Part shown: one piece after another, positions 3,071-45,681 of the stretch
Layout of the letters: the number at the start of each line of letters is the position of its first letter
Position numbering within the stretch: the stretch's first letter is position 1
DNA from: an uncultured SAR86 cluster bacterium
GTDB lineage: Bacteria; Pseudomonadota; Gammaproteobacteria; Magnimaribacterales; D2472
Assembly: GCA_902624425.1 (NCBI GenBank)
Contig: CACNXK010000003.1
Coordinates: forward strand, 41,798-105,797
DNA length: 64,000 nucleotides
Direction: 5' to 3'
Program-made: the position numbers and the translations under genes
The notes under the pieces: generated by a model
The model's input: the letters and a program-made list of their open reading frames with translations, nothing else
What the model was told of the DNA's origin: nothing
Database searches by the model: none

Positions 3071-3316
3071 ATGGAAGCTGAAATAAATAGAATTAAATGG
3101 AAATCAAGACGAGGTATGCGCGAGCTAGATCTTTTATTTGAAAACTTTTTTAAATTTCATGCTTCAAAGATTTCAAAAACTGAGCTTCAAACATTGCGAG
3201 AACTTTTAGTATATGATGATCAATCCCTATTTGATTTTATATTTAAAGATAAAACCCTTGGCAATTTAAAACATGAGGAATTTATAAAAAAATTTCTAAA
3301 AAAATATGAAAAATAA
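3071..3316 (+). CDS. sdhE: FAD assembly factor SdhE (YgfY)
   Basis: 81 aa with RIKWKSRRGMRELDLLFENF, matching the SdhE RGxxE motif. It is divergent from ygfZ, as in enterobacteria. Confidence 0.9.
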   Translation: MEAEINRIKWKSRRGMRELDLLFENFFKFHASKISKTELQTLRELLVYDDQSLFDFIFKDKTLGNLKHEEFIKKFLKKYEK

Positions 3317-23973: not shown

Positions 23974-26619
23974 ATGAAATCTGGTAAAGATTTTGATCCA
24001 ATCGAAACAAGAGAATGGATTGAATCACTCGATGATGTAATAGATGATCAGGGAACTGATAGAGCTTCATTTCTTCTCAATAAATTAGCTAAACATTTAA
24101 TGGCTAAGGGTGCAGTCCCTTCATATAACTTAACAACACCTTTCAAAAATACTATTTCACCTGAAAATGAGGCTATGATGCCCGGCGATCTTTTCATGGA
24201 AAGAAGAATAAGATCATTAATTAGATGGAATGCTCTTGTAACGGTTTTAAGAGCTAATAAAAGTGATGATGAGCTAGGCGGACATATTGCTACCTTCTCT
24301 TCAGCTGCCATGCTTTACGATATAGGCTTTAATTATTTTTTTAGAGGACAAGAAAGTAAAAATGACGATTTAATCTATTTCCAAGGGCATTCTTCACCTG
24401 GAATTTATGCAAGAAGTTTTCTTGAGGGTCGCTTAGATGAAGATGATTTAGATAATTTCAGAAGAGAGGTTGATAAACCAGGACTCTCTTCATATCCACA
24501 TCCCTGGTTAATGCCTGATTACTGGCAGTTTCCTGTAGTTTCAATGGGTCTTGGTCCCATATCTGCAATCTATCAAGCGCATGTTATGAAGTATTTGCAT
24601 GCTAGAGGTTTGAAAGACTTAGGGGATAGAAAAATCTGGGGCTTTTGGGGAGATGGAGAAATGGATGAGCCTGAATCATTAGGTGCTATTGGTTTAGCTG
24701 CAAGAGAAAAGTTAGACAATTTAATCTTTGTAATTAACTGTAATTTGCAAAGGCTTGATGGTCCTGTGCGAGGAAATGGAAAAGTCATTCAGGAGCTTGA
24801 AAGACAATTTAGAGGCTCAGGCTGGAATGTGATTAAAGTAGTTTGGGGCAGATTGTGGGATCCTATAATTGCAAAAGATAAAACAGGAAATCTTCAAAAA
24901 ATAATGGATGAGGTTGTTGATGGTGAAATGCAAAACTTTAAGGCAAAAGGAGGCGCATATACAAGAGAACATTTCTTTGGAAAGCATCCTGATGCACTGA
25001 AGCTTGTCAAAGGTCTTTCCGATGAGGAGATTTATAAACTTAATCGAGGTGGACATGATCCTTATAAAGTTTATGCTGCATATCACGAAGCAGTTAATCA
25101 TAAAGGATCTCCTACAGTTATTCTCGCACTAACAACTAAGGGATATGGTGTAGGATCTAGAGAGGCGGACAATACTACTCATCAGGTAAAAAAACTTTCT
25201 TTAGATAATATAAAAATCTTTAGAGATAGATTTGATATACCAGTTTCAGATGAGGAAATAGAAAATCTTCCATATGTTCGTCCAAAAAAAGACTCTCCTG
25301 AAATCAAATACCTCAAAGAGACAAGGGAAAAACTTGGAGGACCAATTCCAAAAAGAAGGAAGCATAACGAAGTTCTAAAACTTAAAAATAAAGATGCTTT
25401 TAAGGTAATACATGATGGAAGTGGTGAAAGGAAAGTCTCTACAACTACTAACTGCGTAAGGATTATGAATAACCTTATTAAAGATGAATCAATTGGAGAG
25501 CGTGTAGTTCCAATAGTCCCAGATGAAGCAAGAACATTCGGAATGGAGGGAATGTTTAAACAAATCGGTATCTACTCATCTGAGGGCCAACTTTATGAAC
25601 CAGAAGATGCTGACCAAGTGATGTGGTACAAAGAGTCTGAGACTGGAGTCATGCTTGAGGAGGGAATTACGGAAGCAGGATCATTTGCTGCATGGACTGC
25701 ACTAGCAACCTCATACACAAATCATAATTTAACTATGATCCCTTTTTATGTTTTTTATTCAATGTTTGGATTTCAAAGAATTCATGACTTAGCGTGGGCT
25801 GCAGGTGATGCTCAGGCCAAAGGATTCTTAATTGGTGCAACATCTGGAAGAACCACCTTAAATGGAGAAGGTCTTCAGCATCAAGACGGGCATAGTCACA
25901 TCTTATCTTCAACTATTCCTAACTGTAAATCATATGATCCAGCATATGGTTACGAATTAGCTGTAATAATTGAGCATGGCCTCAAGGAGATGTATCAAGA
26001 TAAGAAAAATTATTTTTATTATTTGACGGTCACAAATGAAAGGTATGTCCAACCTCCTAAGCCAAAAGGAAAGAATACCGATATGAACATAATCAAAGGA
26101 ATGCATAGGATTCGCGAGGTTAAAAATCCTAAGGTTAGATTGCTGGGGTCAGGTTCAATTTTAAACGAAAGCATTAAAGCAGCTGAAAAGCTCAATGATT
26201 ATGGTATAGAAAGTGAAATTTGGAGTGTTACAAGTTTTAATATGCTGCGTAAAGATGGAATGGAAACTGAGAATCAAAATATTAAAAATCCAACTAGTAA
26301 AGCAAAAGAAGCCTTTGTAACAAAATCTTTCTCTGAAAATGAGATTCCTACTATTGCATCAACAGATTATATGAGAGCTTACTCTGAACAAATTAGACCA
26401 TATATTAATTCTGCATATTACACGCTTGGAACAGATGGTTTTGGAAGAAGTGACAGCAGAGATAAGTTACGAGAATTTTTTGAAATTGATGCTAACAGCA
26501 TTGTAATGACCTCAGCTTATGCGCTTCATAAAGAAGGAAAAATTGATAAAAAAGAACTTCAAAAGATTTATAAAGATATCAAGGTTGATAAAAACAAAAT
26601 TTCGCCTTGGAATGAGTAA
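23974..26619 (+). CDS. aceE: Pyruvate dehydrogenase E1 component
   Basis: 881 aa homodimeric-type E1. GHIATFSSAA, FQGHSSPGIYARSFLEGR, GDGEMDEPES. Confidence 0.96.
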   Translation: MKSGKDFDPIETREWIESLDDVIDDQGTDRASFLLNKLAKHLMAKGAVPSYNLTTPFKNTISPENEAMMPGDLFMERRIRSLIRWNALVTVLRANKSDDELGGHIATFSSAAMLYDIGFNYFFRGQESKNDDLIYFQGHSSPGIYARSFLEGRLDEDDLDNFRREVDKPGLSSYPHPWLMPDYWQFPVVSMGLGPISAIYQAHVMKYLHARGLKDLGDRKIWGFWGDGEMDEPESLGAIGLAAREKLDNLIFVINCNLQRLDGPVRGNGKVIQELERQFRGSGWNVIKVVWGRLWDPIIAKDKTGNLQKIMDEVVDGEMQNFKAKGGAYTREHFFGKHPDALKLVKGLSDEEIYKLNRGGHDPYKVYAAYHEAVNHKGSPTVILALTTKGYGVGSREADNTTHQVKKLSLDNIKIFRDRFDIPVSDEEIENLPYVRPKKDSPEIKYLKETREKLGGPIPKRRKHNEVLKLKNKDAFKVIHDGSGERKVSTTTNCVRIMNNLIKDESIGERVVPIVPDEARTFGMEGMFKQIGIYSSEGQLYEPEDADQVMWYKESETGVMLEEGITEAGSFAAWTALATSYTNHNLTMIPFYVFYSMFGFQRIHDLAWAAGDAQAKGFLIGATSGRTTLNGEGLQHQDGHSHILSSTIPNCKSYDPAYGYELAVIIEHGLKEMYQDKKNYFYYLTVTNERYVQPPKPKGKNTDMNIIKGMHRIREVKNPKVRLLGSGSILNESIKAAEKLNDYGIESEIWSVTSFNMLRKDGMETENQNIKNPTSKAKEAFVTKSFSENEIPTIASTDYMRAYSEQIRPYINSAYYTLGTDGFGRSDSRDKLREFFEIDANSIVMTSAYALHKEGKIDKKELQKIYKDIKVDKNKISPWNE

Positions 26620-27891
26620 ATGAAACAAATAATTAAAATTCCAAGTTTGGGTGATGCAGAAAATACTGAAGTCATAGAAATCTGTGTTAATCCTGGTGAC
26701 AGTGTTGGTTCAGATGATTCAATTGTTGTTCTTGAATCTGAAAAAGCAGCTATGGATGTCCCTGCTTCAAAGCAAGGAGTCGTAAAGAAAGTTCTTGTAA
26801 AAATTGGGGATGAAGTTAAAGAGGGCGATGACTTTTTGGAAATTGAAGTTTCTGAGGAGGTAATCAAAGAGAAAAAATCAGATCAAAATAAGAAAGATGA
26901 TTTGCAACATGACGAAGCTTCTAAAGAGGAGGTTGTTGTGGAGCAAGCTGTTGTAAAAGAGGATGTTGTTCAGGAATCAGATGAATCGCAAGAATATAAA
27001 ACTTCCAAATCTGGAATTTATGCTGGTCCTGCAGTTAGAAAGTTGGCAAGAGAGTTTGGCATAAATTTGAATGAGGTTTTAGCTTCCGGTCCCAGAAATA
27101 GAATACTTAAAGAAGATCTTCATAAATTCGTAAAATCTAAACTCAAAGATTCTTCATCTGGAATTCCAAAAATGCCAAGTATTGATTTTTCTGAATTTGG
27201 TGATGTTGAAGAGATTGATCTTACAAAATTCCAAAAAACATCTGCTTTAAATCTCCAGCAATCTTGGATAACTATCCCTCATGTTACGCAACATGATGAA
27301 ACCTCAATAGATGAGCTATTAGAACTTAGGAAATCACTTATTAAAAAATATAAAACAAAAGTCTCACCATTAGCATTCTTTGCAAAAGGTATATGCAGAT
27401 TACTTGAAGAATTCCCTATGTTTAATGCATCTATTGATATGAATAGTATGAAGATAATCAAAAAAGACTTTATAAATCTTGGTATTGCAGTTGATACTCC
27501 GCAAGGATTAATTGTTCCAAATATTAAGTCAACAAATAAACTTTCTATTCAAGAAATCTCTAATGAAATAGGAAGGCTAGCTGATTTGGCGAAATCTAGA
27601 AAAATTAAAGTTGCTGACTTAAAGGGATCTACATTCACCATAAGCTCTCTCGGAAGTTTTGGAGGAAGATACTTTACTCCAATTATTAATCCACCTGAAG
27701 TTGCCATATTAGGCATTTCAAAAAGCTATGAATCGGTTTTGATTGAGGAGGGAAAGCCTAAAAAATCAGTTAAACTTCCAATATCTCTATCTTATGATCA
27801 TCGAATTATTAACGGTGTTGAGGGGGTTAGGTTTACAACAAGATTTTGTGAAATTTTACAAGATGTTAATTTTTTTAAGGAGAATTTTTAA
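26620..27891 (+). CDS. aceF: Dihydrolipoamide acetyltransferase E2 (single lipoyl domain)
   Basis: Lipoyl motif VLESEKAAMDVPA, an E3-binding segment (AGPAVRKLAREFGINL) and the catalytic SYDHRIINGVEG. Confidence 0.95.
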   Translation: MKQIIKIPSLGDAENTEVIEICVNPGDSVGSDDSIVVLESEKAAMDVPASKQGVVKKVLVKIGDEVKEGDDFLEIEVSEEVIKEKKSDQNKKDDLQHDEASKEEVVVEQAVVKEDVVQESDESQEYKTSKSGIYAGPAVRKLAREFGINLNEVLASGPRNRILKEDLHKFVKSKLKDSSSGIPKMPSIDFSEFGDVEEIDLTKFQKTSALNLQQSWITIPHVTQHDETSIDELLELRKSLIKKYKTKVSPLAFFAKGICRLLEEFPMFNASIDMNSMKIIKKDFINLGIAVDTPQGLIVPNIKSTNKLSIQEISNEIGRLADLAKSRKIKVADLKGSTFTISSLGSFGGRYFTPIINPPEVAILGISKSYESVLIEEGKPKKSVKLPISLSYDHRIINGVEGVRFTTRFCEILQDVNFFKENF

Positions 27892-30532: not shown

Positions 30533-30778
30533 ATGAATATTTACGTTGGAAACCTACCTTGGTCTATTGATGATCAGCAGTTAGAAGATCTTTTCAAAGA
30601 ACATGGTGAGGTTACCTCAGCAAGAGTCATCACTGACCGTTTTACAAAAAGATCAAGAGGCTTTGGCTTCGTTGAAATGGAAAGTGGAGCTGAGGAAGCA
30701 ATTCAAGCTTTAAATGATTCGGAAGTTGAAGGAAGAAAGCTTGTTGTAAATGAATCTAAGCCAAAAGAAGATAGGTAG
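30533..30778 (+). CDS. RRM-type RNA-binding protein
   Basis: 81 aa. RNP2 IYVGNL and RNP1 RGFGFVEM. Confidence 0.9.
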   Translation: MNIYVGNLPWSIDDQQLEDLFKEHGEVTSARVITDRFTKRSRGFGFVEMESGAEEAIQALNDSEVEGRKLVVNESKPKEDR

Positions 30779-36869: not shown

Positions 36870-39035
36870 ATGGATATGAAAAATTACGTAAAACGTCAAA
36901 ACTTGAGCATTCATAGTGCACTTGATAGATTCCTATCTGATGAAGTCTTGGTTGGGCTTAATATAGATGCAGAAGAATTCTGGAATAATTTCGAAGAACT
37001 TCTTAATAAATTTCACGAAAGAAATAAAGATTTATTAAAAAAGAGATCTTTTTTGCAAGATCAGATTTCTGATTGGCATAAAAATAATGATCTGAACTTA
37101 GATGAATATAAAAAGTTTTTAATTGAAATCGGTTATTTAGAAAAAACTCCTGATGATTTCACAATTACAACTGAAAACACAGATCAAGAAATATCTAGCA
37201 TTCCAGGTCCGCAGTTAGTCGTCCCAATAATGAATGCAAGATTTGCCTTAAATGCAACAAATGCAAGATGGGGTAGTCTTTATGATGCACTTTATGGAAC
37301 AGATGTTATTTCGGAAGATGAAGGTGCAACAAGAGAAGGACCCTATAATGAAATCAGAGGAAATAAGGTAATAGACTATGCAAAACAATTTTTAGATGAT
37401 TGTTTTCCAATCGAAGACTTCAGCCACAGTGATGTTTCACATATCACTATAGAAAATCAAAGACTGGTATTTTGTTCTGACCAAGAACAAATTTCCTATT
37501 TGAAAGACGAGTCTCAATTCAAAGGTTTCAATGGTATTTTTGAAAGTCCAACTGCAATTCTTTTAGTCAATAATAATCTTCATATAGAAATTCAAATAGA
37601 CTCTGATCATCCAGTTGGCAAGAGCGATAAAGCAAATATTAAAGATATTATTTTAGAATCTGCTGTCTCAACAATCCAAGACTGTGAAGATTCAGTCGCA
37701 GCTGTTGATGCAGAAGATAAAGTAACAGCCTACAGAAACTGGCTAGGTTTGATGAAAGGTGATCTTTCTGAATCATTTGAAAAGAATGGAAAACAAATTA
37801 CCAGAGTCTTAAAGGAAGATAGACAGTACTTAGATTTGGAAGGTAAAAGTTTTTCTCTTCCTGGAAGAAGTCTTTTGTTAGTCAGAAATGTAGGCCATTT
37901 AATGCAGAACTCTTCTGTAATTTTAGAAAATGGTGAGGAGGTATTTGAGGGTATTTTGGATGCTGTTTTTACTATTTGCATAGCACTTTATGATTTAAAA
38001 AATCTAAATAGTCTTTCAAATTCTAGAACTGGGAGCATGTATATTGTGAAGCCTAAAATGCATGGATCTGAGGAAGTAGCTTTTACTTGTGATTTATTTG
38101 ATGCTGTTGAAAAAATTTTTAAATTAAAAAAGAATACAGTTAAAGTTGGCATCATGGATGAGGAGAGAAGAACCACTTTAAACTTAAAATCATGTATTGA
38201 AAAAGCAAAAGAAAGAGTAATCTTCATTAATACAGGATTTTTAGATAGAACTGGTGATGAAATACATACAAGCATGGAAGCAGGAGCTATGGTTCCAAAA
38301 TCAGAGATGAAAATGCAGCCATGGATTAACTCATATGAGGACTGGAATGTAGACATTGGAATACAGTGTGGCTTGAATGGTAAAGCTCAAATCGGAAAAG
38401 GTATGTGGGCAATGCCTGATGAAATGAAGGAAATGGTAGAGACTAAAATTATTCATCCTTTATCTGGCGCAACATGTGCATGGGTTCCTTCACCTACAGC
38501 AGCAACACTTCATGCAATGCATTACCATGAAGTTGATGTTCTTTCTCAACAGGAAAAACTTTCTTCAAGAAAGTCTGCAGATATAGATAAGATCTTATCC
38601 ATACCACTTTTGAAAGATGATTTAGATAAGAAAACTATAAGGGATGAAATTGCAAATAGTGCTCAAGGCATTCTTGGATATGTAGTTAGATGGATTGACC
38701 AAGGTATAGGGTGCTCAAAAGTTCCTGATATTAATAATATAGGCTTAATGGAAGACAGGGCAACTTGTAGGATTTCCAGCCAACATATATCAAATTGGCT
38801 TCATCATGGTATCTGCTCAGAAGAGGAAGTGATTGATATTTTTAAAGAAATGGCCCTGGTAGTTGACGAACAGAATAAAGATGATCCTTTATATAATAAA
38901 ATGGGTTCAAATTTTTCTGGTTTTGCATTTCAGGCATCATTAGATTTAGCAATAAAGGGAGTAAATCAGCCAAGTGGATATACTGAACCTTTATTGCATA
39001 AATGGCGTTTAGAGTTTAAGAAAAATACTTCTTAA
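36870..39035 (+). CDS. glcB: Malate synthase G
   Basis: 721 aa. IPGPQLVVPIMNARFALNATNARWGSLYDALYGTD, MDEERRTT, and size typical of the G isoform. Confidence 0.93.
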   Translation: MDMKNYVKRQNLSIHSALDRFLSDEVLVGLNIDAEEFWNNFEELLNKFHERNKDLLKKRSFLQDQISDWHKNNDLNLDEYKKFLIEIGYLEKTPDDFTITTENTDQEISSIPGPQLVVPIMNARFALNATNARWGSLYDALYGTDVISEDEGATREGPYNEIRGNKVIDYAKQFLDDCFPIEDFSHSDVSHITIENQRLVFCSDQEQISYLKDESQFKGFNGIFESPTAILLVNNNLHIEIQIDSDHPVGKSDKANIKDIILESAVSTIQDCEDSVAAVDAEDKVTAYRNWLGLMKGDLSESFEKNGKQITRVLKEDRQYLDLEGKSFSLPGRSLLLVRNVGHLMQNSSVILENGEEVFEGILDAVFTICIALYDLKNLNSLSNSRTGSMYIVKPKMHGSEEVAFTCDLFDAVEKIFKLKKNTVKVGIMDEERRTTLNLKSCIEKAKERVIFINTGFLDRTGDEIHTSMEAGAMVPKSEMKMQPWINSYEDWNVDIGIQCGLNGKAQIGKGMWAMPDEMKEMVETKIIHPLSGATCAWVPSPTAATLHAMHYHEVDVLSQQEKLSSRKSADIDKILSIPLLKDDLDKKTIRDEIANSAQGILGYVVRWIDQGIGCSKVPDINNIGLMEDRATCRISSQHISNWLHHGICSEEEVIDIFKEMALVVDEQNKDDPLYNKMGSNFSGFAFQASLDLAIKGVNQPSGYTEPLLHKWRLEFKKNTS

Positions 39036-39036
39036 A
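39015..39036. promoter_or_regulatory. Perfect inverted repeat TTTAAGAA-N6-TTCTTAAA upstream of the sRNA promoter
   Basis: 8-bp arms read directly from the sequence. The repeat overlaps the glcB stop codon and is centred about 75 nt before the predicted sRNA start. The outer hexamers TTTAAG/CTTAAA resemble GacA/UvrY box half-sites TGTAAG/CTTACA. Confidence 0.4.
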
Positions 39037-39064
39037 AAAAACTTAACTTTTTTCTATTTAGGTG

Positions 39065-39092
39065 TTGACACTTATCAGAAAGAGAGTAATAT
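39065..39092 (+). promoter_or_regulatory. Sigma-70 promoter of the candidate sRNA
   Basis: TTGACA (39065-39070), 16 nt, TAATAT (39087-39092). Confidence 0.65.
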
Positions 39093-39098
39093 TAACTT

Positions 39099-39319
39099 TA
39101 CCTAACGAGGACCGATAAGAGACCAACTGCAGACGGAAACTTAAGAGAAATCGAAGGAAGAGCCCTCAAGGCGAAAGCGTTTTAAAGAGTATACGATAAA
39201 AAATAGCTTTAAAACCCACCAAGGATGAAGAGATAACATCTAAGGAGCTAAAGAAAATCTCACTTTAGACACTTGAGGAACTCGAACTAAGAGACAGAGC
39301 GCAAGCTCTGTTTTTTTTT
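39099..39319 (+). ncRNA. Candidate Csr/Rsm-family (CsrA-sequestering) small RNA, about 220 nt
   Basis: Bounded by a consensus-like promoter and a strong terminator (ACAGAGC-GCAA-GCTCTGT plus T9 at 39294-39319). There is no plausible ORF. Six GGA motifs in A(N)GGA context at 39109, 39135, 39156, 39223 (CAAGGATG), 39244 and 39277. The 5' end is predicted only. Confidence 0.6.
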
Positions 39320-39367
39320 GTGTTGTAAAAATTCCTTATGGTTCTTTTTTAATGTAATATCCAACCC

Positions 39368-40777
39368 ATGTTCACTAGAACAAAGATTATTTGCACTATT
39401 GGCCCAGCTACATCTGAATTAAATATAATGCAAAAGATGTATGCAGCTGGAATGAATGTCGTTCGCATTAATATGTCACATGCATCTCATGATGAGGCGT
39501 TAAATGTAATTAATAATGTTAAATTAATTAATAAAAATTTAGATATTAAAATGGGTCCAATTTCTATTTTAATAGATACTCAAGGCCCAGAAATCAGAAC
39601 AGGAGACAGAGATACATCTCTTGATTTAAAACTTGGTGATAAAGTAAATCTTACTGTAAGAGATGAAGTTGATGTTGAAACATCATCTATCAAAATTAAC
39701 TATAGAGGATTAATTAACAGTGTTAAAAAAGGTTCCAAGATTTCTGTAGATAATGGCCTAGTAAATTTTGAAGTTTTAGAAAAACATGATGACAAGCTTT
39801 TATGCAGAGTTATTGATGGAGGTAAAATTGGTAGCAAGAGAAGTGTTAATCTGCCCGGAGTAAGGATTGATCTTCCTTCAATAACCAAAAAAGACAAAGA
39901 AGATATAAATTTTGCTATCAAACATGATGTAGATTACATAGCTCTTTCCTTTGTTCGAAAAATACAAGATATTCATAGTTTAAGAAAGATCCTAAAAAGA
40001 AAGAAATCACCAATAAAAATTGTTTCAAAGATTGAAGATAATGAAGGTCTTTCTAATATTCATGCTATTACTCAAGAATCAGATTCTGTCATGGTTGCCA
40101 GAGGTGATCTTGGAATTGAAACAAGCTTGGCTGATCTGCCAAATGTTCAAAGACGAATAATGTATGCATGTTCAAAATGGGGTAGAAGATCTATCGTAGC
40201 TACTCACTTGTTAGAATCAATGATAGAGAAACCAACACCTACCAGAGCCGAAGTAACTGATGTTGCTAACACTATCTATGAGGGTGCAGATGCAATTATG
40301 CTGTCTGGTGAGACTAGTATTGGGAAGTATCCTGTTGAATGTATTAAGTTTCTCAAATCAATAGCTGGTAGTTCAGAAAAATTTAGAACATTAGGTTATG
40401 AAGAAAAACTTAAATTAAGCAGCGACTGGGAATATTTAGCAAAGACTGCAAGAGATCTCGCTGAGTCAATTGATGCTGATGGTATTATCGTTGTTACAAG
40501 AAGCGGGTATACAGCAAATCTAGTTGCCAATGCAAAGCCATTCAATGTTCCAATATATGCTTTCACCAATGATAAAAGAGTTCATAGTCAGCTTTCATTA
40601 GTTGGCTCTGTTTTAAGTATTTATCAAAAAAGTATTGTTGATAATAAAAATAATATGTCTAAAATTGCTAATACACTCAAAAAGGTTTTTAGTAAAAAGA
40701 AAAAATTGAAGTTTGTTCTTATTTCGGGGATGTTTTCTGAGAAACATTCTGATGCAATTAGGGTTGTAAACTTTTAA
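39368..40777 (+). CDS. pyk: Pyruvate kinase
   Basis: TKIICTIGPA, MNVVRINMSHA, MVARGDLGIE, and a C-terminal regulatory domain. Confidence 0.95.
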   Translation: MFTRTKIICTIGPATSELNIMQKMYAAGMNVVRINMSHASHDEALNVINNVKLINKNLDIKMGPISILIDTQGPEIRTGDRDTSLDLKLGDKVNLTVRDEVDVETSSIKINYRGLINSVKKGSKISVDNGLVNFEVLEKHDDKLLCRVIDGGKIGSKRSVNLPGVRIDLPSITKKDKEDINFAIKHDVDYIALSFVRKIQDIHSLRKILKRKKSPIKIVSKIEDNEGLSNIHAITQESDSVMVARGDLGIETSLADLPNVQRRIMYACSKWGRRSIVATHLLESMIEKPTPTRAEVTDVANTIYEGADAIMLSGETSIGKYPVECIKFLKSIAGSSEKFRTLGYEEKLKLSSDWEYLAKTARDLAESIDADGIIVVTRSGYTANLVANAKPFNVPIYAFTNDKRVHSQLSLVGSVLSIYQKSIVDNKNNMSKIANTLKKVFSKKKKLKFVLISGMFSEKHSDAIRVVNF

Positions 40778-40787
40778 AGGGGATAGC

Positions 40788-42350
40788 ATGTTTTTTAATT
40801 CATTAGATTTTTCAATCATTGCAATTTATTGTGTCGGTATAATCGCCATAGCTACATATGTTTCTAGGCAACAATCAGGATCTGAGAGAAGTCCTGAAGA
40901 TTATTTTTTAGCCGGCAGATCCCTTCCTTGGTGGGCTATAGGAGCTTCTCTGATTGCTGCAAATATTTCCGCAGAACAAATTATCGGTATGTCAGGTCAG
41001 GGTTTTGTAGTGGGTATTGCAATTGCTACATATGAACTTACAGCTGCAATTGCTCTAATTGTCATGGCAAAGTATTTCCTGCCTCTCTTTCTAAAAAAAC
41101 AAATCTATACGATGCCGCAATTCTTAGAGCAACGCTTTGATAAAAGAGTTAGCCTGGTATTATCCTTTTTCTGGCTTGCAGTGTATGTATTTATCAATCT
41201 TACTTCAGTCTTGTGGCTAGGCTCTCTAGCTATCAATACTCTTACAGGACTTGAAACTTTCTATGGTCTAGTTTTACTTGCAATTCTATCTTTAGCATAT
41301 TCTTTATATGGGGGATTAAAGGCTGTTGCACTTACAGATATTATTCAAGTTGTACTCTTAATATTTGGAGGATTAGCCGTCTCATTCATTGCTTTATCAA
41401 AGATTGGAAATGGTGTTGTTACTGATGGTTTCGTTGAAGTGTATAGATCATTACCTGAAAAATGGGACATTATTTTGTCTCCTGATAATCCATCCTATAA
41501 AGACCTTCCAGGTGTTTGGGTCTTAATTGGAGGTCTCTGGATAGCACACTTTGCATATTGGGGTTTCAATCAATATATAACTCAAAGAGCTCTTGGCGCT
41601 AAATCTCTTCCAGAAGCACAAAAAGGAGTTATGTTTGCAGCCTATTTAAAGATTATTATGCCTCTTGTTATCGTTCTCCCAGGTATATGCGCAGCTGTTC
41701 TATTCCCATTACTTGAAACAAGCGATAAAGCATATCCTATGATGATGTCTTTACTGCCTAATGGATTGTTAGGATTAACCTTCGCTGCATTAATTGCAGC
41801 TATCGTTTCGTCTTTAGCATCTATGACCAATAGTATAAGCACAATATTTACTATGGATGTATATAGAGCTTATGCAACAAATAATCCGTCTAATGCAAGA
41901 TTGGTTAACATTGGAAGATCAACCTCGGTTGTTGCTTTAGTAATAGCTGTATTTTCTGCAACACCTCTATTGGGGAGCCTAGAGTCAGCATTTCAATATA
42001 TTCAAAACTTTACCGGATTTTTTACTCCAGGGATTTTAGTTATATTTTTAGTAGCTCTATTTTGGCCAAAGGCTACAACATTATCAGTGCTTAATGCTGC
42101 ATTAACTTCTCTAGCTTTATCAATATTTATATTTTACTTTTTCCCTGAATATCCATTCATTCATAGAATGGCTGTGGTGTTCTTTTCATCATTCTTTGTT
42201 TGTTATTTAACATCTTTTATTCAAGGCTATACAGACAGTCCTAAGGCTATTAACTTAAATGATATGAGTTTTGCAACATCTAGAGCTTTTAATATAAATA
42301 CTGCTGTTGTTGTAGTGATATTATCAATAATCTATATTAGCCTGTGGTAA
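40788..42350 (+). CDS. Sodium:solute symporter (SSS family, SGLT-like sugar transporter)
   Basis: 520 aa polytopic protein. YFLAGRSLPWWAIGASLIAANISAEQIIGMSG is typical of SGLT-type SSS carriers. Confidence 0.85.
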   Translation: MFFNSLDFSIIAIYCVGIIAIATYVSRQQSGSERSPEDYFLAGRSLPWWAIGASLIAANISAEQIIGMSGQGFVVGIAIATYELTAAIALIVMAKYFLPLFLKKQIYTMPQFLEQRFDKRVSLVLSFFWLAVYVFINLTSVLWLGSLAINTLTGLETFYGLVLLAILSLAYSLYGGLKAVALTDIIQVVLLIFGGLAVSFIALSKIGNGVVTDGFVEVYRSLPEKWDIILSPDNPSYKDLPGVWVLIGGLWIAHFAYWGFNQYITQRALGAKSLPEAQKGVMFAAYLKIIMPLVIVLPGICAAVLFPLLETSDKAYPMMMSLLPNGLLGLTFAALIAAIVSSLASMTNSISTIFTMDVYRAYATNNPSNARLVNIGRSTSVVALVIAVFSATPLLGSLESAFQYIQNFTGFFTPGILVIFLVALFWPKATTLSVLNAALTSLALSIFIFYFFPEYPFIHRMAVVFFSSFFVCYLTSFIQGYTDSPKAINLNDMSFATSRAFNINTAVVVVILSIIYISLW

Positions 42351-44782
42351 AAAAATTTTCCCTAATTGCCTTATTATTTGGTATTTCTATCAATACTAGT
42401 GCATCTATAGATTGGTCAAGTCCATCATCTTGTAATATAGAAGATTCAAAGAACCTTGATGAAATAATCAATCAAATGACTCTTAGACAAAAGGTAGGCC
42501 AAATAATTATGCCTGACATTCAATATGTCACACCTGATGAAGCAAAAAAATATCAGTTAGGTTCAATTCTCAACGGAGGTGGAAGTTGGCCAAATAATAA
42601 AAAAACTAGCACAGTCAAAGATTGGCAAAATCTAAGTAAAGCTTATTATGATGCTTCACCAATTATTGGAGATCAAATTGTTCCAATAATATGGGGAACA
42701 GATGCTGTGCATGGTCATAGTAATGTTATTGGGGCGACTGTATTCCCTCACAATATTGGCATTGGCGCGACTCAAGATACTGATCTGATTAAAAGAATTG
42801 CAGAGGTTGTTGCAAAGGAAGTTCTCTCGACAGGGATCGTTTGGACTTTTGCTCCTACAATCACAGTTCCTCAGAATGATACTTGGGGTAGGACCTATGA
42901 AGGTTTTTCAGAGAATCAAGATCTTGTATCAAGAATAGGAAAAGCTTTTATTGAGGGAGTTCAAGGAACCGGCGATGAATTTCTTGATTCAAATCATATT
43001 ATGGCAACTGCGAAGCACTTCATTGGTGATGGTGGCACTTTTAAGGGAATTGATAAGGGGGATACTCGAATTTCTGAAGGTGGTTTGAAGAACATACATG
43101 GAACGCCATACTATTCAGCTTTTGAAGCTTGTGTTCAATCTGTTATGGCAAGTTTTAACTCCTGGAATGGTGTAAAAATGCATGGCCACGAATATCTATT
43201 AACTGATGTTTTGAGGGATCAAATGGGTTTCAATGGGCTGGTTGTTGGAGATTGGAATGGTCACGGAGAGGTTCCAGGCTGTACAAATGCAAATTGTCCA
43301 GAAAGTTTCAATGCTGGTGTGGATATTTATATGGCCCCCGATGAATGGAAAGAGCTTTACACAAATACAGTAAGGGCAGTTAAATCCGGAGATATTTCAG
43401 AGGATAGATTGGATGATGCCGTTAGAAAAATTCTCACTGTGAAGGATAGGCTTGGAATGTTAAATGGACGAAAGCCTCATGAATATGAAAATTATGTTGG
43501 TAAAATTGAGCATAGAGAGCTAGCAAGAGAGGCGGTATCAAAATCTCTTGTTTTGCTCAAGAATAACGATAATCTACTACCTCTAGATTCCACAAAGCAT
43601 TTTCTAGTAATTGGAAATGCTGCTGTTGAGATAATGAATCAAATGGGTGGTTGGACAATCACGTGGCAGGGTACTGAGTTAAATAGATCAGATTTTCCAA
43701 ATACACTATCCATATACGAAGCTTTAGCTGAACAAGTCATTCAGAATGGGGGCTCAATAGAGTTTTCACAAAATGGTAGTTACAAGCAAAAACCTGACTA
43801 TGTAATTTCAGTTTATGGTGAAAATCCCTATGCAGAGTTCTTTGGGGATGTGAAGGATTTATCATTTAAATCGTCGGACTTAAATTATCTAAGCGCAATG
43901 CGAAAGATTAGTAACGAATCTATTCCCATTACTTCAATATTTTTAAGCGGAAGGCCTCTGGCGGTTAACAAACAAATAAATCTTTCCTCTGCTTTCATTG
44001 CTGCATGGCTCCCTGGTCAGGCCGTTGAAGGAATAGCTGATGTTATTTTTAAAAAAAATGGAAAGATAAATAAAGATTTTACAGGAAAACTTTCATTTAC
44101 TTGGCCTAAAAAATCTACGCAGACTGTTCTAAATTCTAATGATCCTCTATCCGATCATTTATTCGCCTTTGGGTATGGATTATCTTATTCCGATACTATT
44201 AACATTCCTTTTCTTGAAGAAGAAGAAATAATCGAAAAGATTGAAAGTAAGATTATTTTTGAAGGCTCACCTTTGAATGCTAATGAGTTTGTAATTGAAA
44301 ATAATAAATCTCCATCGATTGTTAATGCTAATTTATACACTAGTCCTGAAAAAAATATTTCTTTGAAAAGATTTGATCTTAATCAGCAGTACGATTCTAG
44401 AAACATTGTTTTTAATGATTCCGAGCTAATGAATGCCTGGGGCATATCATTGAATGAGAATCTTGTTATGAGTGAGCTTAGCAACCCATATGTGAGCATG
44501 AAGTTTCGAGTAAACTCTAGATCTGATGATCTATTATTTTTTGTTGCAACCTGCGGTGTAAATTGCAGTGGAGCAATTAATTTAATGGATTTCTTAAGTG
44601 ATCAAAATAATAATTCTTGGATCGAGGTTGATATTAGTTATAAATGTCTAGAGAAAAGCGGTCTAGATTTATCTAAAGTATATATTCCTGCGATGTTAAT
44701 GACTTCTGGAAAATGGGATATAGATATTAATAAGATTGTTATAAATAAAGATAGAAGTTCCAAGAGAGTTATTCAGTGCTAG
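42344..44782 (+). CDS. Exported glycoside hydrolase family 3 beta-glucosidase / exo-beta-glucanase
   Basis: GTG start overlapping the symporter stop, with a signal peptide. GH3 motifs GTDAVHGH, KHFIGDGG and the nucleophile region VVGDWNGH; 812 aa with an extra C-terminal domain. Confidence 0.9.
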   Translation: MVKKFSLIALLFGISINTSASIDWSSPSSCNIEDSKNLDEIINQMTLRQKVGQIIMPDIQYVTPDEAKKYQLGSILNGGGSWPNNKKTSTVKDWQNLSKAYYDASPIIGDQIVPIIWGTDAVHGHSNVIGATVFPHNIGIGATQDTDLIKRIAEVVAKEVLSTGIVWTFAPTITVPQNDTWGRTYEGFSENQDLVSRIGKAFIEGVQGTGDEFLDSNHIMATAKHFIGDGGTFKGIDKGDTRISEGGLKNIHGTPYYSAFEACVQSVMASFNSWNGVKMHGHEYLLTDVLRDQMGFNGLVVGDWNGHGEVPGCTNANCPESFNAGVDIYMAPDEWKELYTNTVRAVKSGDISEDRLDDAVRKILTVKDRLGMLNGRKPHEYENYVGKIEHRELAREAVSKSLVLLKNNDNLLPLDSTKHFLVIGNAAVEIMNQMGGWTITWQGTELNRSDFPNTLSIYEALAEQVIQNGGSIEFSQNGSYKQKPDYVISVYGENPYAEFFGDVKDLSFKSSDLNYLSAMRKISNESIPITSIFLSGRPLAVNKQINLSSAFIAAWLPGQAVEGIADVIFKKNGKINKDFTGKLSFTWPKKSTQTVLNSNDPLSDHLFAFGYGLSYSDTINIPFLEEEEIIEKIESKIIFEGSPLNANEFVIENNKSPSIVNANLYTSPEKNISLKRFDLNQQYDSRNIVFNDSELMNAWGISLNENLVMSELSNPYVSMKFRVNSRSDDLLFFVATCGVNCSGAINLMDFLSDQNNNSWIEVDISYKCLEKSGLDLSKVYIPAMLMTSGKWDIDINKIVINKDRSSKRVIQC

Positions 44783-45681
44783 ATAAGAATCTTCTTCTTG
44801 TCGATATTGGTGGCACAAATATTAGATATGCATATTCAAATATTGGAGATTCTGATTTTGTCTCTGAAAATAAAGCTGAACTTGATAGCCTAAATGATTT
44901 TGATAATTTGATGTCAGTGCTGTTAGCAAAGTCAGATATTAAACACATTGTATTTTCTATTGCAGGGCCTAAAGTAAATAACTCGATCAAGATGACCAAT
45001 AGGAATTTTGAAATTGATGCTGATGAAATTAAAAAAAGATTTAATCTAGATTCCTGTTATTTACTAAATGACTGGGAGTCAATTGGATATAGTATTAGAA
45101 CATTCTCTGAAAATGATTTTGATAACTTTAAAGAGGGCGAGCCTTTTAATAATACCTTTTTAGTCATTGGGCCTGGTACTGGTCTTGGCGCATCAGTGAT
45201 TTCTGGCAATAATGTGATTGCAACAGAGATAGGAAATACTAATTTGGGCTTATCTGCTTTGAAATCTCTTCTAAAGATAAACAGTGATGAATATAATGTT
45301 TTAGAGGATATTATTTCAGGCACTGGAATTTCTAGAATGTTTGAAACAAAGACTGGAAATAAAGTTAAATCAGAAGAAATCTTTTCTCTTTCTATCAATG
45401 GTGACGATGATGCCATAGAGGTAATTGATATGTTTACCATAGCTTTTGCAAGAACTCTCTCAGATTTATCGCTGGTATTTTCAAGCGGAGGGGGAATTAT
45501 TCTTGCGGGATCTCTTTCTAGGTCTTTTTTGTCGATTGCAAATAAAGATTTGTTTAATAAGCATTTTATAGAAGGGAAAAGTGATATTCACAGGGAAATT
45601 CTTAATAAGGTCGGTATTAAAGTAGCAAATAGGGGTTATACCTGTCTTTTTGGCAGTCTTAACTATATTAATAGCATATAA
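44776..45681 (+). CDS. glk: Glucokinase
   Basis: GTG start overlapping GH3 by 7 nt. LLLVDIGGTNIRYA ATP-binding motif and GPGTGLG. Confidence 0.85.
   Translation: MLDKNLLLVDIGGTNIRYAYSNIGDSDFVSENKAELDSLNDFDNLMSVLLAKSDIKHIVFSIAGPKVNNSIKMTNRNFEIDADEIKKRFNLDSCYLLNDWESIGYSIRTFSENDFDNFKEGEPFNNTFLVIGPGTGLGASVISGNNVIATEIGNTNLGLSALKSLLKINSDEYNVLEDIISGTGISRMFETKTGNKVKSEEIFSLSINGDDDAIEVIDMFTIAFARTLSDLSLVFSSGGGIILAGSLSRSFLSIANKDLFNKHFIEGKSDIHREILNKVGIKVANRGYTCLFGSLNYINSI

Follow-up and report, generated by a model that had tools for sequence, protein, structure and literature searches.

An IMES-1 (RF02034) RNA gene with its own promoter and terminator in the glcB-pyk spacer of a SAR86-cluster gammaproteobacterium

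The spacer between the genes for malate synthase G (glcB) and pyruvate kinase (pyk) of a SAR86-cluster gammaproteobacterium harbours a gene for the IMES-1 RNA (Rfam RF02034), a self-contained, non-coding RNA whose structure is supported by covariation. Within the window, by which is meant the whole 64-kb stretch of DNA analysed, cmscan placed the IMES-1 RNA motif at 39106-39294 on the + strand with a score of 194.3 bits (gathering score 81) and E-values of 5e-44 for the whole window and 5e-46 for the region 38900-39500. The match is full-length and not truncated, covering model positions 1-191 of 191, and it overturns the original prediction that this RNA belonged to no named family and would be a lineage-specific member of the Csr/Rsm group. 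The RNA of this spacer is an already catalogued marine orphan and an ordinary member of its family, not a new one. The motif is said to have been reported by Weinberg et al. and by Shi et al. in 2009, reportedly as an exceptionally abundant transcript in marine metatranscriptomes, and to our knowledge no function has been demonstrated for it by anyone. What is added here is an address in SAR86, a conserved promoter, an UP-like tract, a terminator, variation in copy number and a set of gene contexts.

The spacer extends over 332 bp (39036-39367), from the glcB stop codon (39033-39035) to the pyk ATG (39368). It had been singled out as the longest non-coding stretch of the window, and no other intergenic gap exceeds it when the small genes at 3071-3316 (SdhE) and 30533-30778 (an RRM protein) are taken into account. 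Its + strand contains no ORF of at least 30 aa, in agreement with the earlier statement that no credible ORF is present. Downstream lie pyk, a Na+/solute symporter, a GH3 glycosidase and glucokinase. Two ORFs of 881 and 423 aa that had been suspected to be alaS-lysC, the usual neighbours of csrA, turned out to be aceE-aceF.

The available evidence supports a stand-alone, non-coding sRNA gene of the sigma-70 type on the + strand, ending in an intrinsic terminator of its own. Its promoter consists of a -35 hexamer TTGACA (39065-39070) and, after a 16-nt spacer, a -10 hexamer TAATAT (39087-39092), exactly as first described, and scores 10/12 in the promoter scan. Amongst the 65 unique homologues, TTGAC[N] is found at the -35 position in 64, with the exact TTGACA in 51 of those; the -10 element reads TATATT in 32 and TAATAT in 21, with other TAnnnT sequences also present, and the two hexamers are separated by 16 nt in 58 and by 17 nt in 6. 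Just 5' of the -35, on the same strand, is an A-tract/T-tract, AAAAAAAACTTAACTTTTTT (39036-39053), that recurs in the family: a tract of the form A>=5-N2-9-T>=5 ends 10-13 nt 5' of the -35 in 42/64 unique promoters and lies 31 nt 5' of it in one further variant, whilst the A+T content over the 40 nt 5' of the -35 is 80-90% in 60/64. As far as its sequence goes, this tract resembles an UP element and may act as one. The terminator (39294-39319, + strand) is likewise as originally described, with a 7-bp stem ACAGAGC/GCTCTGT, a GCAA loop and nine T, the first of which closes the stem; stem and T-run are kept in 65/65 homologues. The recurrence of promoter (64/65) and terminator (65/65) is far beyond chance. 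With a start at about 39099, as the position of the -10 element implies, the predicted primary transcript occupies 39099-39319 on the + strand (~221 nt), and a length of ~215-220 nt is predicted for IMES-1 transcripts.

The family sample comprises 134 copies among the matches listed, of which 87 are full length and 65 are unique with flanks; the carriers are at least 120 marine metagenome contigs together with SAR86 single-cell and MAG genomes. The IMES-1 fold has five helices, arranged as a bipartite 5' hairpin and a three-hairpin junction, and is strongly supported by covariation. All of its elements lie on the + strand and follow the Rfam structure. The 5' domain (39106-39153) is formed by P1 (39106-39109 with 39150-39153) and P1b (39116-39120 with 39139-39143), in both of which pairs change on both sides, and which are separated by a 6x6 internal loop (GACCGA / AGAGAA); P1b is paired in 98.5% of cells and is capped by an 18-nt loop containing CAACUGCAGACGG (39124-39136), every position of which is invariant or at least 90% conserved. 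A single-stranded linker, AAGGAAGAGCC (39154-39164), follows, bearing a GGA at 39156 and, 3' of it, an AGAG of which AGA is invariant and the final G at least 90% conserved. The multi-helix junction (39165-39277), which also shows covariation, is closed by P2 (39165-39170 with 39272-39277) and carries P3 (39179-39187 with 39207-39215), P4 (39223-39227 with 39237-39241) and P5 (39248-39253 with 39263-39268). Between P4 and P5, the unpaired junction segment J4/5 reads AAGGAG (39242-39247), a sequence that is also Shine-Dalgarno-like.

With the 65 unique homologues placed on the Rfam structure, 83.6% of cells are paired, and both partners vary in 26 of 42 pairs. Covariation scores 0.418, compared with 0.174 for shuffled alignments, none of 500 of which reached 0.418, and with at most 0.113 when the partners are slid. 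The Rfam structure was used for these counts because RNAalifold, run on a MAFFT alignment, recovered P1b, P3, P4 and P5 and mispaired the linker with the terminator; pair counts for the terminator helix are unreliable, owing to a register shift in its 5' arm in the MAFFT alignment. The minimum free energy of the window copy is -50.5 kcal/mol (z = -3.6 against shuffles), and the corresponding fold is consistent with the multi-helix junction. Of the 232 alignment columns, 76 are invariant and 45 nearly so, with several loops and junctions contributing to them.

SAR86 lineages that diverged deeply have kept the IMES-1 unit. It occupies the same glcB-pyk spacer in five single-cell or MAG genomes of SAR86 (195-202 bits), and the loci in which it precedes pyk include some from lineages in which Pyk shares only 61-65% identity with the window protein; in Gammaproteobacteria other than SAR86 it is absent next to pyk. 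Its neighbourhoods are variable and rich in genes for sugar metabolism and the pyruvate node. The downstream gene is co-oriented where it is pyk (18 loci, the commonest) or a patatin gene (12), and convergent where it is oadB (16) or eda (10). Tandem or double copies are present at five loci (L150, L152, L171, L195 and L241), each tandem copy having a separate promoter and terminator. With downstream genes that are convergent or co-oriented according to the locus, and with these duplications, IMES-1 would be expected to act in trans.

Some of the contigs themselves hint at expression. A picorna-like RNA-virus contig (L124) carries an IMES-1 fragment at its 5' end, and other fragments are fused to unrelated sequence of 50-56% GC, joins that point to IMES-1 having been present as RNA. 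A scan of viral contigs with a loose pattern gave mostly chance matches, with IMES-1 in L124 and L088 only. The high-GC contigs had been considered as possible rRNA chimeras; they were found to contain no rRNA, and consist of IMES-1 fragments fused to unrelated sequence. Dupont et al. 2012 (PMC3358033) placed a non-coding RNA that is abundant in marine metatranscriptomes within the glycolysis and glucose-uptake region of SAR86. The SAR86 address of IMES-1 agrees with that location and, judged by position rather than by sequence, their RNA is probably IMES-1. IMES-1 is likely to be very highly expressed.

The original prediction regarded this RNA as a Csr/Rsm-type sponge. On such a reading, an abundant RNA would use its GGA motifs to titrate a protein of the CsrA family and would thereby free carbon-metabolism mRNAs from translational control. 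This now seems improbable. The six GGAs are indeed where they were placed (39109, 39135, 39156, 39223, 39244 and 39277); however, six is no excess for such an A/G-rich sequence, since 4.27 +/- 1.20 are expected from dinucleotide shuffles (P=0.15) and the 65 family members have a median z of 0.12. By way of comparison, CsrB has ~18-22 GGAs, and RsmY and RsmZ have ~7-8 in shorter RNAs. The expectation that the motifs would lie in loops or linkers is borne out for 39135, 39156 and 39244, which are unpaired in the consensus, but not for 39109 (P1), 39223 (P4) and 39277 (P2), which lie inside covarying helices or at their edges and read GGA in only 37%, 42% and 57% of variants, being lost in 43-63%. 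Conservation is similarly divided. The J4/5 motif at 39244 is the best kept (GGA in 60/65 variants, or 92%, and GGC in 5/65), and that of the P1b loop at 39135 is present in 34% in register and in ~94% if a shift of 1 nt is allowed, whereas the other four stand at 37-60%, the linker motif at 39156 reaching 60% with GGU, GGC, GGG, GUC and AGA as alternatives. Between one and five GGAs, usually three, are fully unpaired in each variant; at L152 the loop and linker GGAs are lost in both copies, and in the minimum free energy fold of the window copy the GG of J4/5 can pair with the CC of CCACC.

In favour of a sponge are the two well-kept, consensus-unpaired sites, ACGG(G)A in the P1b loop and CA/GAGGAGC in J4/5. 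The latter fits the CARGGA core well in most family members (the window copy has UAAGGA), and the linker GGA lies 21 nt from the P1b-loop site. A strong promoter, multicopy or tandem genes and carbon-metabolism neighbours are also Csr/Rsm-like. Moreover, CsrA is nearly universal in Gammaproteobacteria, which counts in favour of this reading, and Buchnera and other reduced symbionts are among the matches to a CsrA protein search, the best 120 of which are all enterobacterial or symbiont relatives. Against this, Csr/Rsm covariance models gave no match even at E<=10 in 38900-39500, where IMES-1 was matched instead, and none at gathering score across the window; only one of the four hairpin loops contains a GGA, and it is mainly outside the GGAs that the RNA is conserved. 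The upstream palindrome that had been tentatively linked to GacA-type activation, TTTAAGAA-N6-TTCTTAAA, does exist at 39015-39036, overlapping the glcB stop codon, but it is part of the glcB coding end, has decayed or moved in even the nearest relatives within SAR86 and is absent where IMES-1 occupies other gene contexts; the GacA/UvrY-type site TGTAAG-N6-CTTACA (up to 2 mismatches) occurs in 1/65 upstream regions. A tblastn search with four CsrA sequences found no csrA either in the window or in the other loci analysed (1.9 Mb, a small part of any genome), and a search with Hfq gave no match in the window or those loci. The SAR86 genome papers and supplements examined make no mention of csrA, hfq or two-component systems. 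Taken together, the retention of only two GGAs, the invariance of many other nucleotides and the stand-alone, sometimes duplicated gene speak for a specific RNA-protein complex rather than a classic CsrA sponge, and IMES-1 appears not to be a repeat-motif sponge of the Csr/Rsm type.

Three further models can be considered. Regulation by base pairing, in which a conserved single-stranded seed, chiefly the P1b loop, would pair with sugar and pyruvate mRNAs, is possible but unlikely. In its favour are the 13 conserved nucleotides exposed in an 18-nt hairpin loop, a terminator with the long U tail typical of chaperone-dependent sRNAs, and the proposal of Dupont et al. 2012 (PMC3358033) that carbon assimilation is subject to RNA-based control. 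Complementary sites in the 64-kb window, however, all have 2 or more mismatches, and none of them falls at a start codon; complements of two conserved IMES-1 elements likewise have no start-codon matches there, and duplexfold of the full-length RNA against 56 start regions produced long-range pairings that are uninformative. In addition, conservation is distributed over at least six separate loops or junctions and not confined to one seed, and seed-type sRNAs do not usually have so elaborate a covarying junction; the 76 invariant and 45 near-invariant columns favour protein binding or a tertiary fold over an sRNA acting by a seed only.

It is very unlikely that the element instead acts in cis, as a leader or riboswitch that controls the pyk-symporter-GH3-glk operon and uses the terminator as expression platform. 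The promoter scan found no promoter-like site from 39319 to the pyk ATG at 39368, and pyk is the commonest downstream gene even in lineages with a divergent Pyk, both of which would suit a leader; many loci, on the other hand, have a convergent or unrelated gene downstream, each tandem copy possesses its own promoter and terminator, and the terminator is invariably retained, with no anti-terminator pairing noticed in an untargeted look. Least probable is a 6S-like RNA that binds the RNA polymerase holoenzyme. Its size (~190-220 nt), its stand-alone gene and its reported abundance are similar to those of 6S RNA, but IMES-1 has neither pairing between its 5' and 3' ends nor a long rod with a central bubble, its fold being a 5' hairpin and a three-hairpin junction, and 6S covariance models gave no match.

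The most likely role, put forward tentatively from architecture and reported abundance, is that of a structured RNA that would bind, scaffold or titrate a specific protein and so influence carbon use. A narrower version, in which IMES-1 would titrate or partner a global RNA-binding protein of SAR86, is doubtful; the protein would be a CsrA homologue, bound through the conserved GGAs at 39135 and 39244, or else the single-RRM protein of 81 aa, itself conserved, whose gene lies 8.3 kb upstream (30533-30778), and the RNA would set metabolism of sugars and the pyruvate node. Were this narrower version true, such control would operate in a heterotroph that ranks among the most abundant in the surface ocean, and an RRM-type protein conserved in the same genome offers a concrete alternative candidate for the partner. 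IMES-1 has long been an orphan, structured and reportedly very abundant in the surface ocean. The picture assembled here, of a stand-alone gene with a strong promoter that adjoins pyk, oadB, eda or glcB across SAR86 and is sometimes duplicated, narrows the experimental options now that a SAR86 isolate, HIMB1674, exists.

Compared with the IMES-1 family as catalogued (RF02034), the window copy has the same helices, the same covariation and the same origin in AT-rich marine genomes, and does not differ structurally. The RNAs of the Csr/Rsm systems (CsrB, CsrC, RsmX, RsmY and RsmZ) are similar in being stand-alone, strongly transcribed and terminator-ended, with purine-rich single strands, paralogous or tandem copies in some lineages and a link to carbon metabolism, and the two conserved unpaired GGAs of IMES-1 could bind one CsrA dimer. 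They differ in that IMES-1 lacks a model match, GGA enrichment and a GacA/UvrY box, that most of its hairpin loops are GGA-free with conservation concentrated in the other loops and junctions, and that it forms a fixed multi-helix junction, not a string of similar GGA hairpins. An abundant decoy sRNA acting on carbon use would follow the same logic as CrcZ/CrcY of Pseudomonas, which titrate Hfq/Crc in catabolite repression. Several purine-rich A-R-N runs occur in IMES-1, and AAGAG recurs in it (6 in the window copy against 2.0 expected, P=0.0035), but AAnAAnAA was not found in it by eye, no hfq was seen in any of the sequence examined, and its promoter is of the sigma-70 type whilst those of CrcZ/CrcY are of the sigma-54/CbrB type. 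In Bacteroides, the single-RRM protein RbpB binds multicopy sRNAs and controls polysaccharide use (PMC11697453). This system, with FopS/GibS, differs from IMES-1 in the RNA itself, FopS being a seed-type RNA of ~65-70 nt and IMES-1 being about three times larger and highly structured; SAR86 nevertheless resembles it in combining TonB-dependent uptake and glycosidases with a multicopy sRNA and a small single-RRM protein, and by this analogy the protein encoded at 30533-30778 may be regarded as a candidate partner of IMES-1.

The 332-bp spacer between the malate synthase G gene (glcB, 36870-39035) and the pyruvate kinase gene (pyk, 39368-40777) is the longest intergenic gap in the window once the small genes for SdhE (3071-3316) and a single-RRM protein (30533-30778) are counted. 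The sequence features underlying the original prediction, that this spacer encodes a CsrA-sponge RNA, are all present: a promoter composed of TTGACA (39065-39070), a 16-nt spacer and TAATAT (39087-39092), scoring 10/12 in a consensus scan; an ACAGAGC-GCAA-GCTCTGT hairpin running into a T run (39294-39319); six GGA trinucleotides (39109, 39135, 39156, 39223, 39244 and 39277); and a perfect palindrome, TTTAAGAA-N6-TTCTTAAA, lying across the glcB stop codon (39015-39036). On the + strand, the interval contains no ORF reaching 30 aa. The accompanying statement that no named family includes this RNA is incorrect: an Rfam scan of the whole window gave a single non-tRNA match, to RF02034, the IMES-1 motif, at 39106-39294 (+). 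The match covers all 191 positions of the model (1-191), and its score of 194.3 bits (E=5e-44) exceeds the gathering score of 81. When 38900-39500 was rescanned with the cut-off relaxed to E=10, no Csr/Rsm covariance model matched the spacer RNA, and the hits other than IMES-1 were weak chance matches. The feature is real but ordinary, in that it is already catalogued. Its expected retention in relatives was borne out: the window Pyk is 92-96% identical to that of SAR86-cluster single-cell genomes and MAGs, and all five SAR86 loci that cover the upstream spacer hold IMES-1 there (195-202 bits). IMES-1 is not beside pyk in the non-SAR86 Gammaproteobacteria compared (Pyk 52-54% identical).

Further homologues were collected by scanning metagenome contigs with a pattern from the P3/J3-4 core, chosen without GGA so that the test of GGA content stayed unbiased. 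At least 120 contigs matched, and iterated nhmmer located at least 134 IMES-1 copies across all loci. Of these, 87 are full length, and 65 are unique and come with flanks; in many cases the contig ends inside IMES-1. Among the 65, TTGACN is found in 64 (exactly TTGACA in 51), followed by a spacer of 16 or 17 nt and a -10 hexamer of TAnnnT form; all 65 have a terminator stem and T-run. The 40 nt 5' of the -35 are 80-90% A+T in 60/64 homologues, and an A-tract/T-tract, which resembles an UP-like element, ends 10-13 nt before the -35 in 42/64 and 31 nt upstream in one further homologue. The neighbouring genes vary. Downstream lie pyk (18 loci), a patatin-like lipase gene (12) or, convergently, genes for the oxaloacetate decarboxylase beta subunit (oadB, 16) and KDPG aldolase (eda, 10); upstream are a divergent IDO-like dioxygenase gene (25), a GH2 glycosidase gene (11) or glcB (5). 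The pairing with pyk is kept even in lineages whose Pyk shares no more than 61-65% identity with that of the window. Three contigs carry tandem copies separated by ~300 nt, every copy having a promoter and a terminator of its own (L152, 1394-1876; L195, 4300-4794; L241, 5184-5663), and two others (L150 and L171) carry copies ~1.2 kb apart. As the patatin-like lipase gene is found both 5' and 3' of IMES-1 copies, it may lie between the latter pairs. Together, the conserved promoter and terminator, varied neighbours and double copies show that IMES-1 is a stand-alone gene, and we infer that its product acts in trans.

When the Rfam consensus structure was projected onto an alignment of these 65 homologues (mean column identity 80%), 83.6% of cells were paired and both sides changed in 26 of the 42 pairs. 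The covariation score of 0.418 compares with 0.174 in shuffles, none of 500 shuffles reached it, and sliding the partners by 1-3 columns reduced it to at most 0.113; the consensus fold is strongly supported. The window copy alone adopts essentially the same fold (-50.5 kcal/mol, z = -3.6), comprising, all on the + strand, P1 (39106-39109 with 39150-39153), P1b (39116-39120 with 39139-39143), P2 (39165-39170 with 39272-39277), P3 (39179-39187 with 39207-39215), P4 (39223-39227 with 39237-39241), P5 (39248-39253 with 39263-39268) and the terminator helix (39294-39311). In the alignment 76 columns are invariant and 45 nearly so, the majority outside the GGAs; the conserved non-GGA elements include CAACUGCAGACGG, GAAAGC, AAGAGU, AAAAAA-AGCUU, CCACCAAG, AAGAGA, UCUC and CUCGAA. 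Among the single-stranded elements, the 13-mer of the P1b loop is the best conserved. This loop also contains the self-complementary hexamer CUGCAG (39127-39132), by which loop-loop dimerisation could occur. AAGAG is the sole short motif repeated above chance (six in the window copy against 2.0 expected, P=0.0035; family median z = 1.9).

That IMES-1 exists as RNA is implied by an 8.7-kb contig, L124 (IMGVR_UViG_3300016740_000053), which encodes an RdRp, a helicase and picornavirus-type (Rhv) capsid proteins and is therefore the genome of a dicistronic picorna-like RNA virus. Its positions 1-~150 are an IMES-1 fragment, from the P1b loop through the P5 loop. The fusion is a cDNA or assembly chimera and, as such a contig could only come from an RNA library, IMES-1 RNA was evidently in that sample. 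Six further contigs (L148, 425-605; L188, 3977-4113; L204, 1214-1395; L219, 907-1095; L223, 599-788; L238, 1407-1547) join IMES-1 fragments to unrelated sequence whose GC content is 50-56%; rRNA, considered as the chimeric partner, was found in none of these contigs. The junctions recur immediately 5' of CAACUGCAG in the P1b loop and, in L148 and L223, directly after AAGGAG/AGGCGC in J4/5, the junction between P4 and P5; these fusions may have arisen as chimeras where abundant RNA fragments end, or may mark processing sites. The IMES-1 motif is said to have been named by Weinberg et al. in 2009, who reportedly found it exceptionally abundant in ocean RNA samples. What such an abundant ocean RNA does is where the residual interest lies.

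Central-carbon genes cluster around IMES-1 in the window: aceE-aceF (23974-27891) lies 11 kb upstream, and pyk is followed by genes for an SSF-family Na+/solute symporter, a GH3 glycosidase and glucokinase (through 40788-45681). This arrangement agrees with the 'glycolysis and glucose uptake' region that Dupont et al. 2012 (PMC3358033) described for SAR86, where they placed an abundant non-coding RNA from marine metatranscriptomes; they inferred RNA-based control of carbon assimilation. Judged by its position, their non-coding RNA is very likely IMES-1, so that the SAR86 home of the motif had very likely been reported already. Carbon use would be the process affected, given the neighbours pyk, oadB, eda, glcB and glycosidases together with this proposal.

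As to mechanism, the anatomy is best fitted, tentatively, by a structured RNA that would act in trans by binding a protein, or possibly a ligand, in a specific complex. This reading draws on the strong autonomous promoter, the fixed multi-helix fold, the paralogous copies and the many invariant unpaired nucleotides scattered over loops and junctions. Its main rival, a seed-type sRNA base-pairing through the conserved loop CAACUGCAGACGG, is rather unlikely; a convincing complementary site was not found in the 64-kb window, a search of little power at that size. A leader of pyk would accord with finding no promoter-like site in 39320-39367, which separates the IMES-1 terminator from the pyk start codon, but is very improbable for a stand-alone gene with its own promoter and terminator, changing neighbours and double copies; pyk, the symporter gene, the GH3 gene and glk may be served by terminator read-through or a non-consensus promoter. 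A 6S-like RNA is the least probable reading of all: the two ends of IMES-1 do not pair, its fold lacks a long rod with a central bubble, and 6S models gave no match. For the favoured protein complex, a concrete candidate partner other than CsrA is possibly the 81-aa single-RRM protein (PF00076, 79.5 bits; + strand), with canonical RNP2 (IYVGNL) and RNP1 (RGFGFVEM) motifs, whose gene lies upstream of a TonB-dependent receptor gene. Its homologues (74-98% identity), some of them named 'RNA-binding protein [SAR86 cluster bacterium]', are conserved across SAR86 and found on many marine contigs, as many as 615 for one cluster; it may be a global RNA-binding protein of the lineage. This candidacy is suggested by the gene's presence in the window, by the Bacteroides precedent, where polysaccharide use is regulated by single-RRM proteins (RbpB) that bind multicopy sRNAs (PMC11697453), and by the scarcity of Shine-Dalgarno sequences. 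The canonical chaperones, Hfq and CsrA among them, are described as missing from Bacteroides (PMC13370968). A Shine-Dalgarno-like 4-mer (GGAG, GAGG, AGGA or AAGG) occurs at -20 to -4 in 7/56 window ORFs, a rough count as start codons came from a mechanical ORF list, and pyk has none.

That IMES-1 is instead a CsrA sponge of the Csr/Rsm type is improbable. In its favour are two well-kept unpaired GGA sites, one of which is, in most variants, a good CARGGA core, the reported abundance of IMES-1 and its multiple copies in some lineages, and the retention of CsrA even in tiny gammaproteobacterial genomes. csrA was not found within the window or 1.9 Mb of collected loci, a small sample. Against it, GGA is not in excess (6 versus 4.27 +/- 1.20 in dinucleotide shuffles, P=0.15; family median z 0.12). 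The predicted exposure and conservation of the motifs hold for 39135, at the 3' end of the P1b loop (GGA or GGGA in ~94% of the 65 variants), and 39244, in J4/5 as AAGGAG (92%), but not for 39109 at the P1 edge (37%), 39223 in the covarying P4 5' arm (42%) or 39277 straddling the P2 3' arm (57%). The linker GGA at 39156 is kept in 60%, being otherwise GGU, GGC, GGG, GUC or AGA, and is followed by an invariant or nearly invariant AGAG. A variant has between 1 and 5 GGAs that are fully unpaired, most often 3, and both L152 copies have lost those of loop and linker. Only one of the four hairpin loops contains GGA; those of P3, P4 and P5 hold other, mostly invariant or nearly invariant, sequences. 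The palindrome, tentatively proposed as a GacA-type activation site, falls within the coding end of glcB and is no longer intact in the closest relatives, and a GacA-box-like site (two mismatches at most) occurs in 1/65 promoters. Membership of the Csr/Rsm family thus fails on model match, on GGA excess and conservation, and on the GacA-type palindrome. In Csr/Rsm RNAs conservation falls on the GGA loops, of which there are ~7-22 within 110-370 nt; IMES-1 is the opposite, its conservation lying mostly outside the GGAs.
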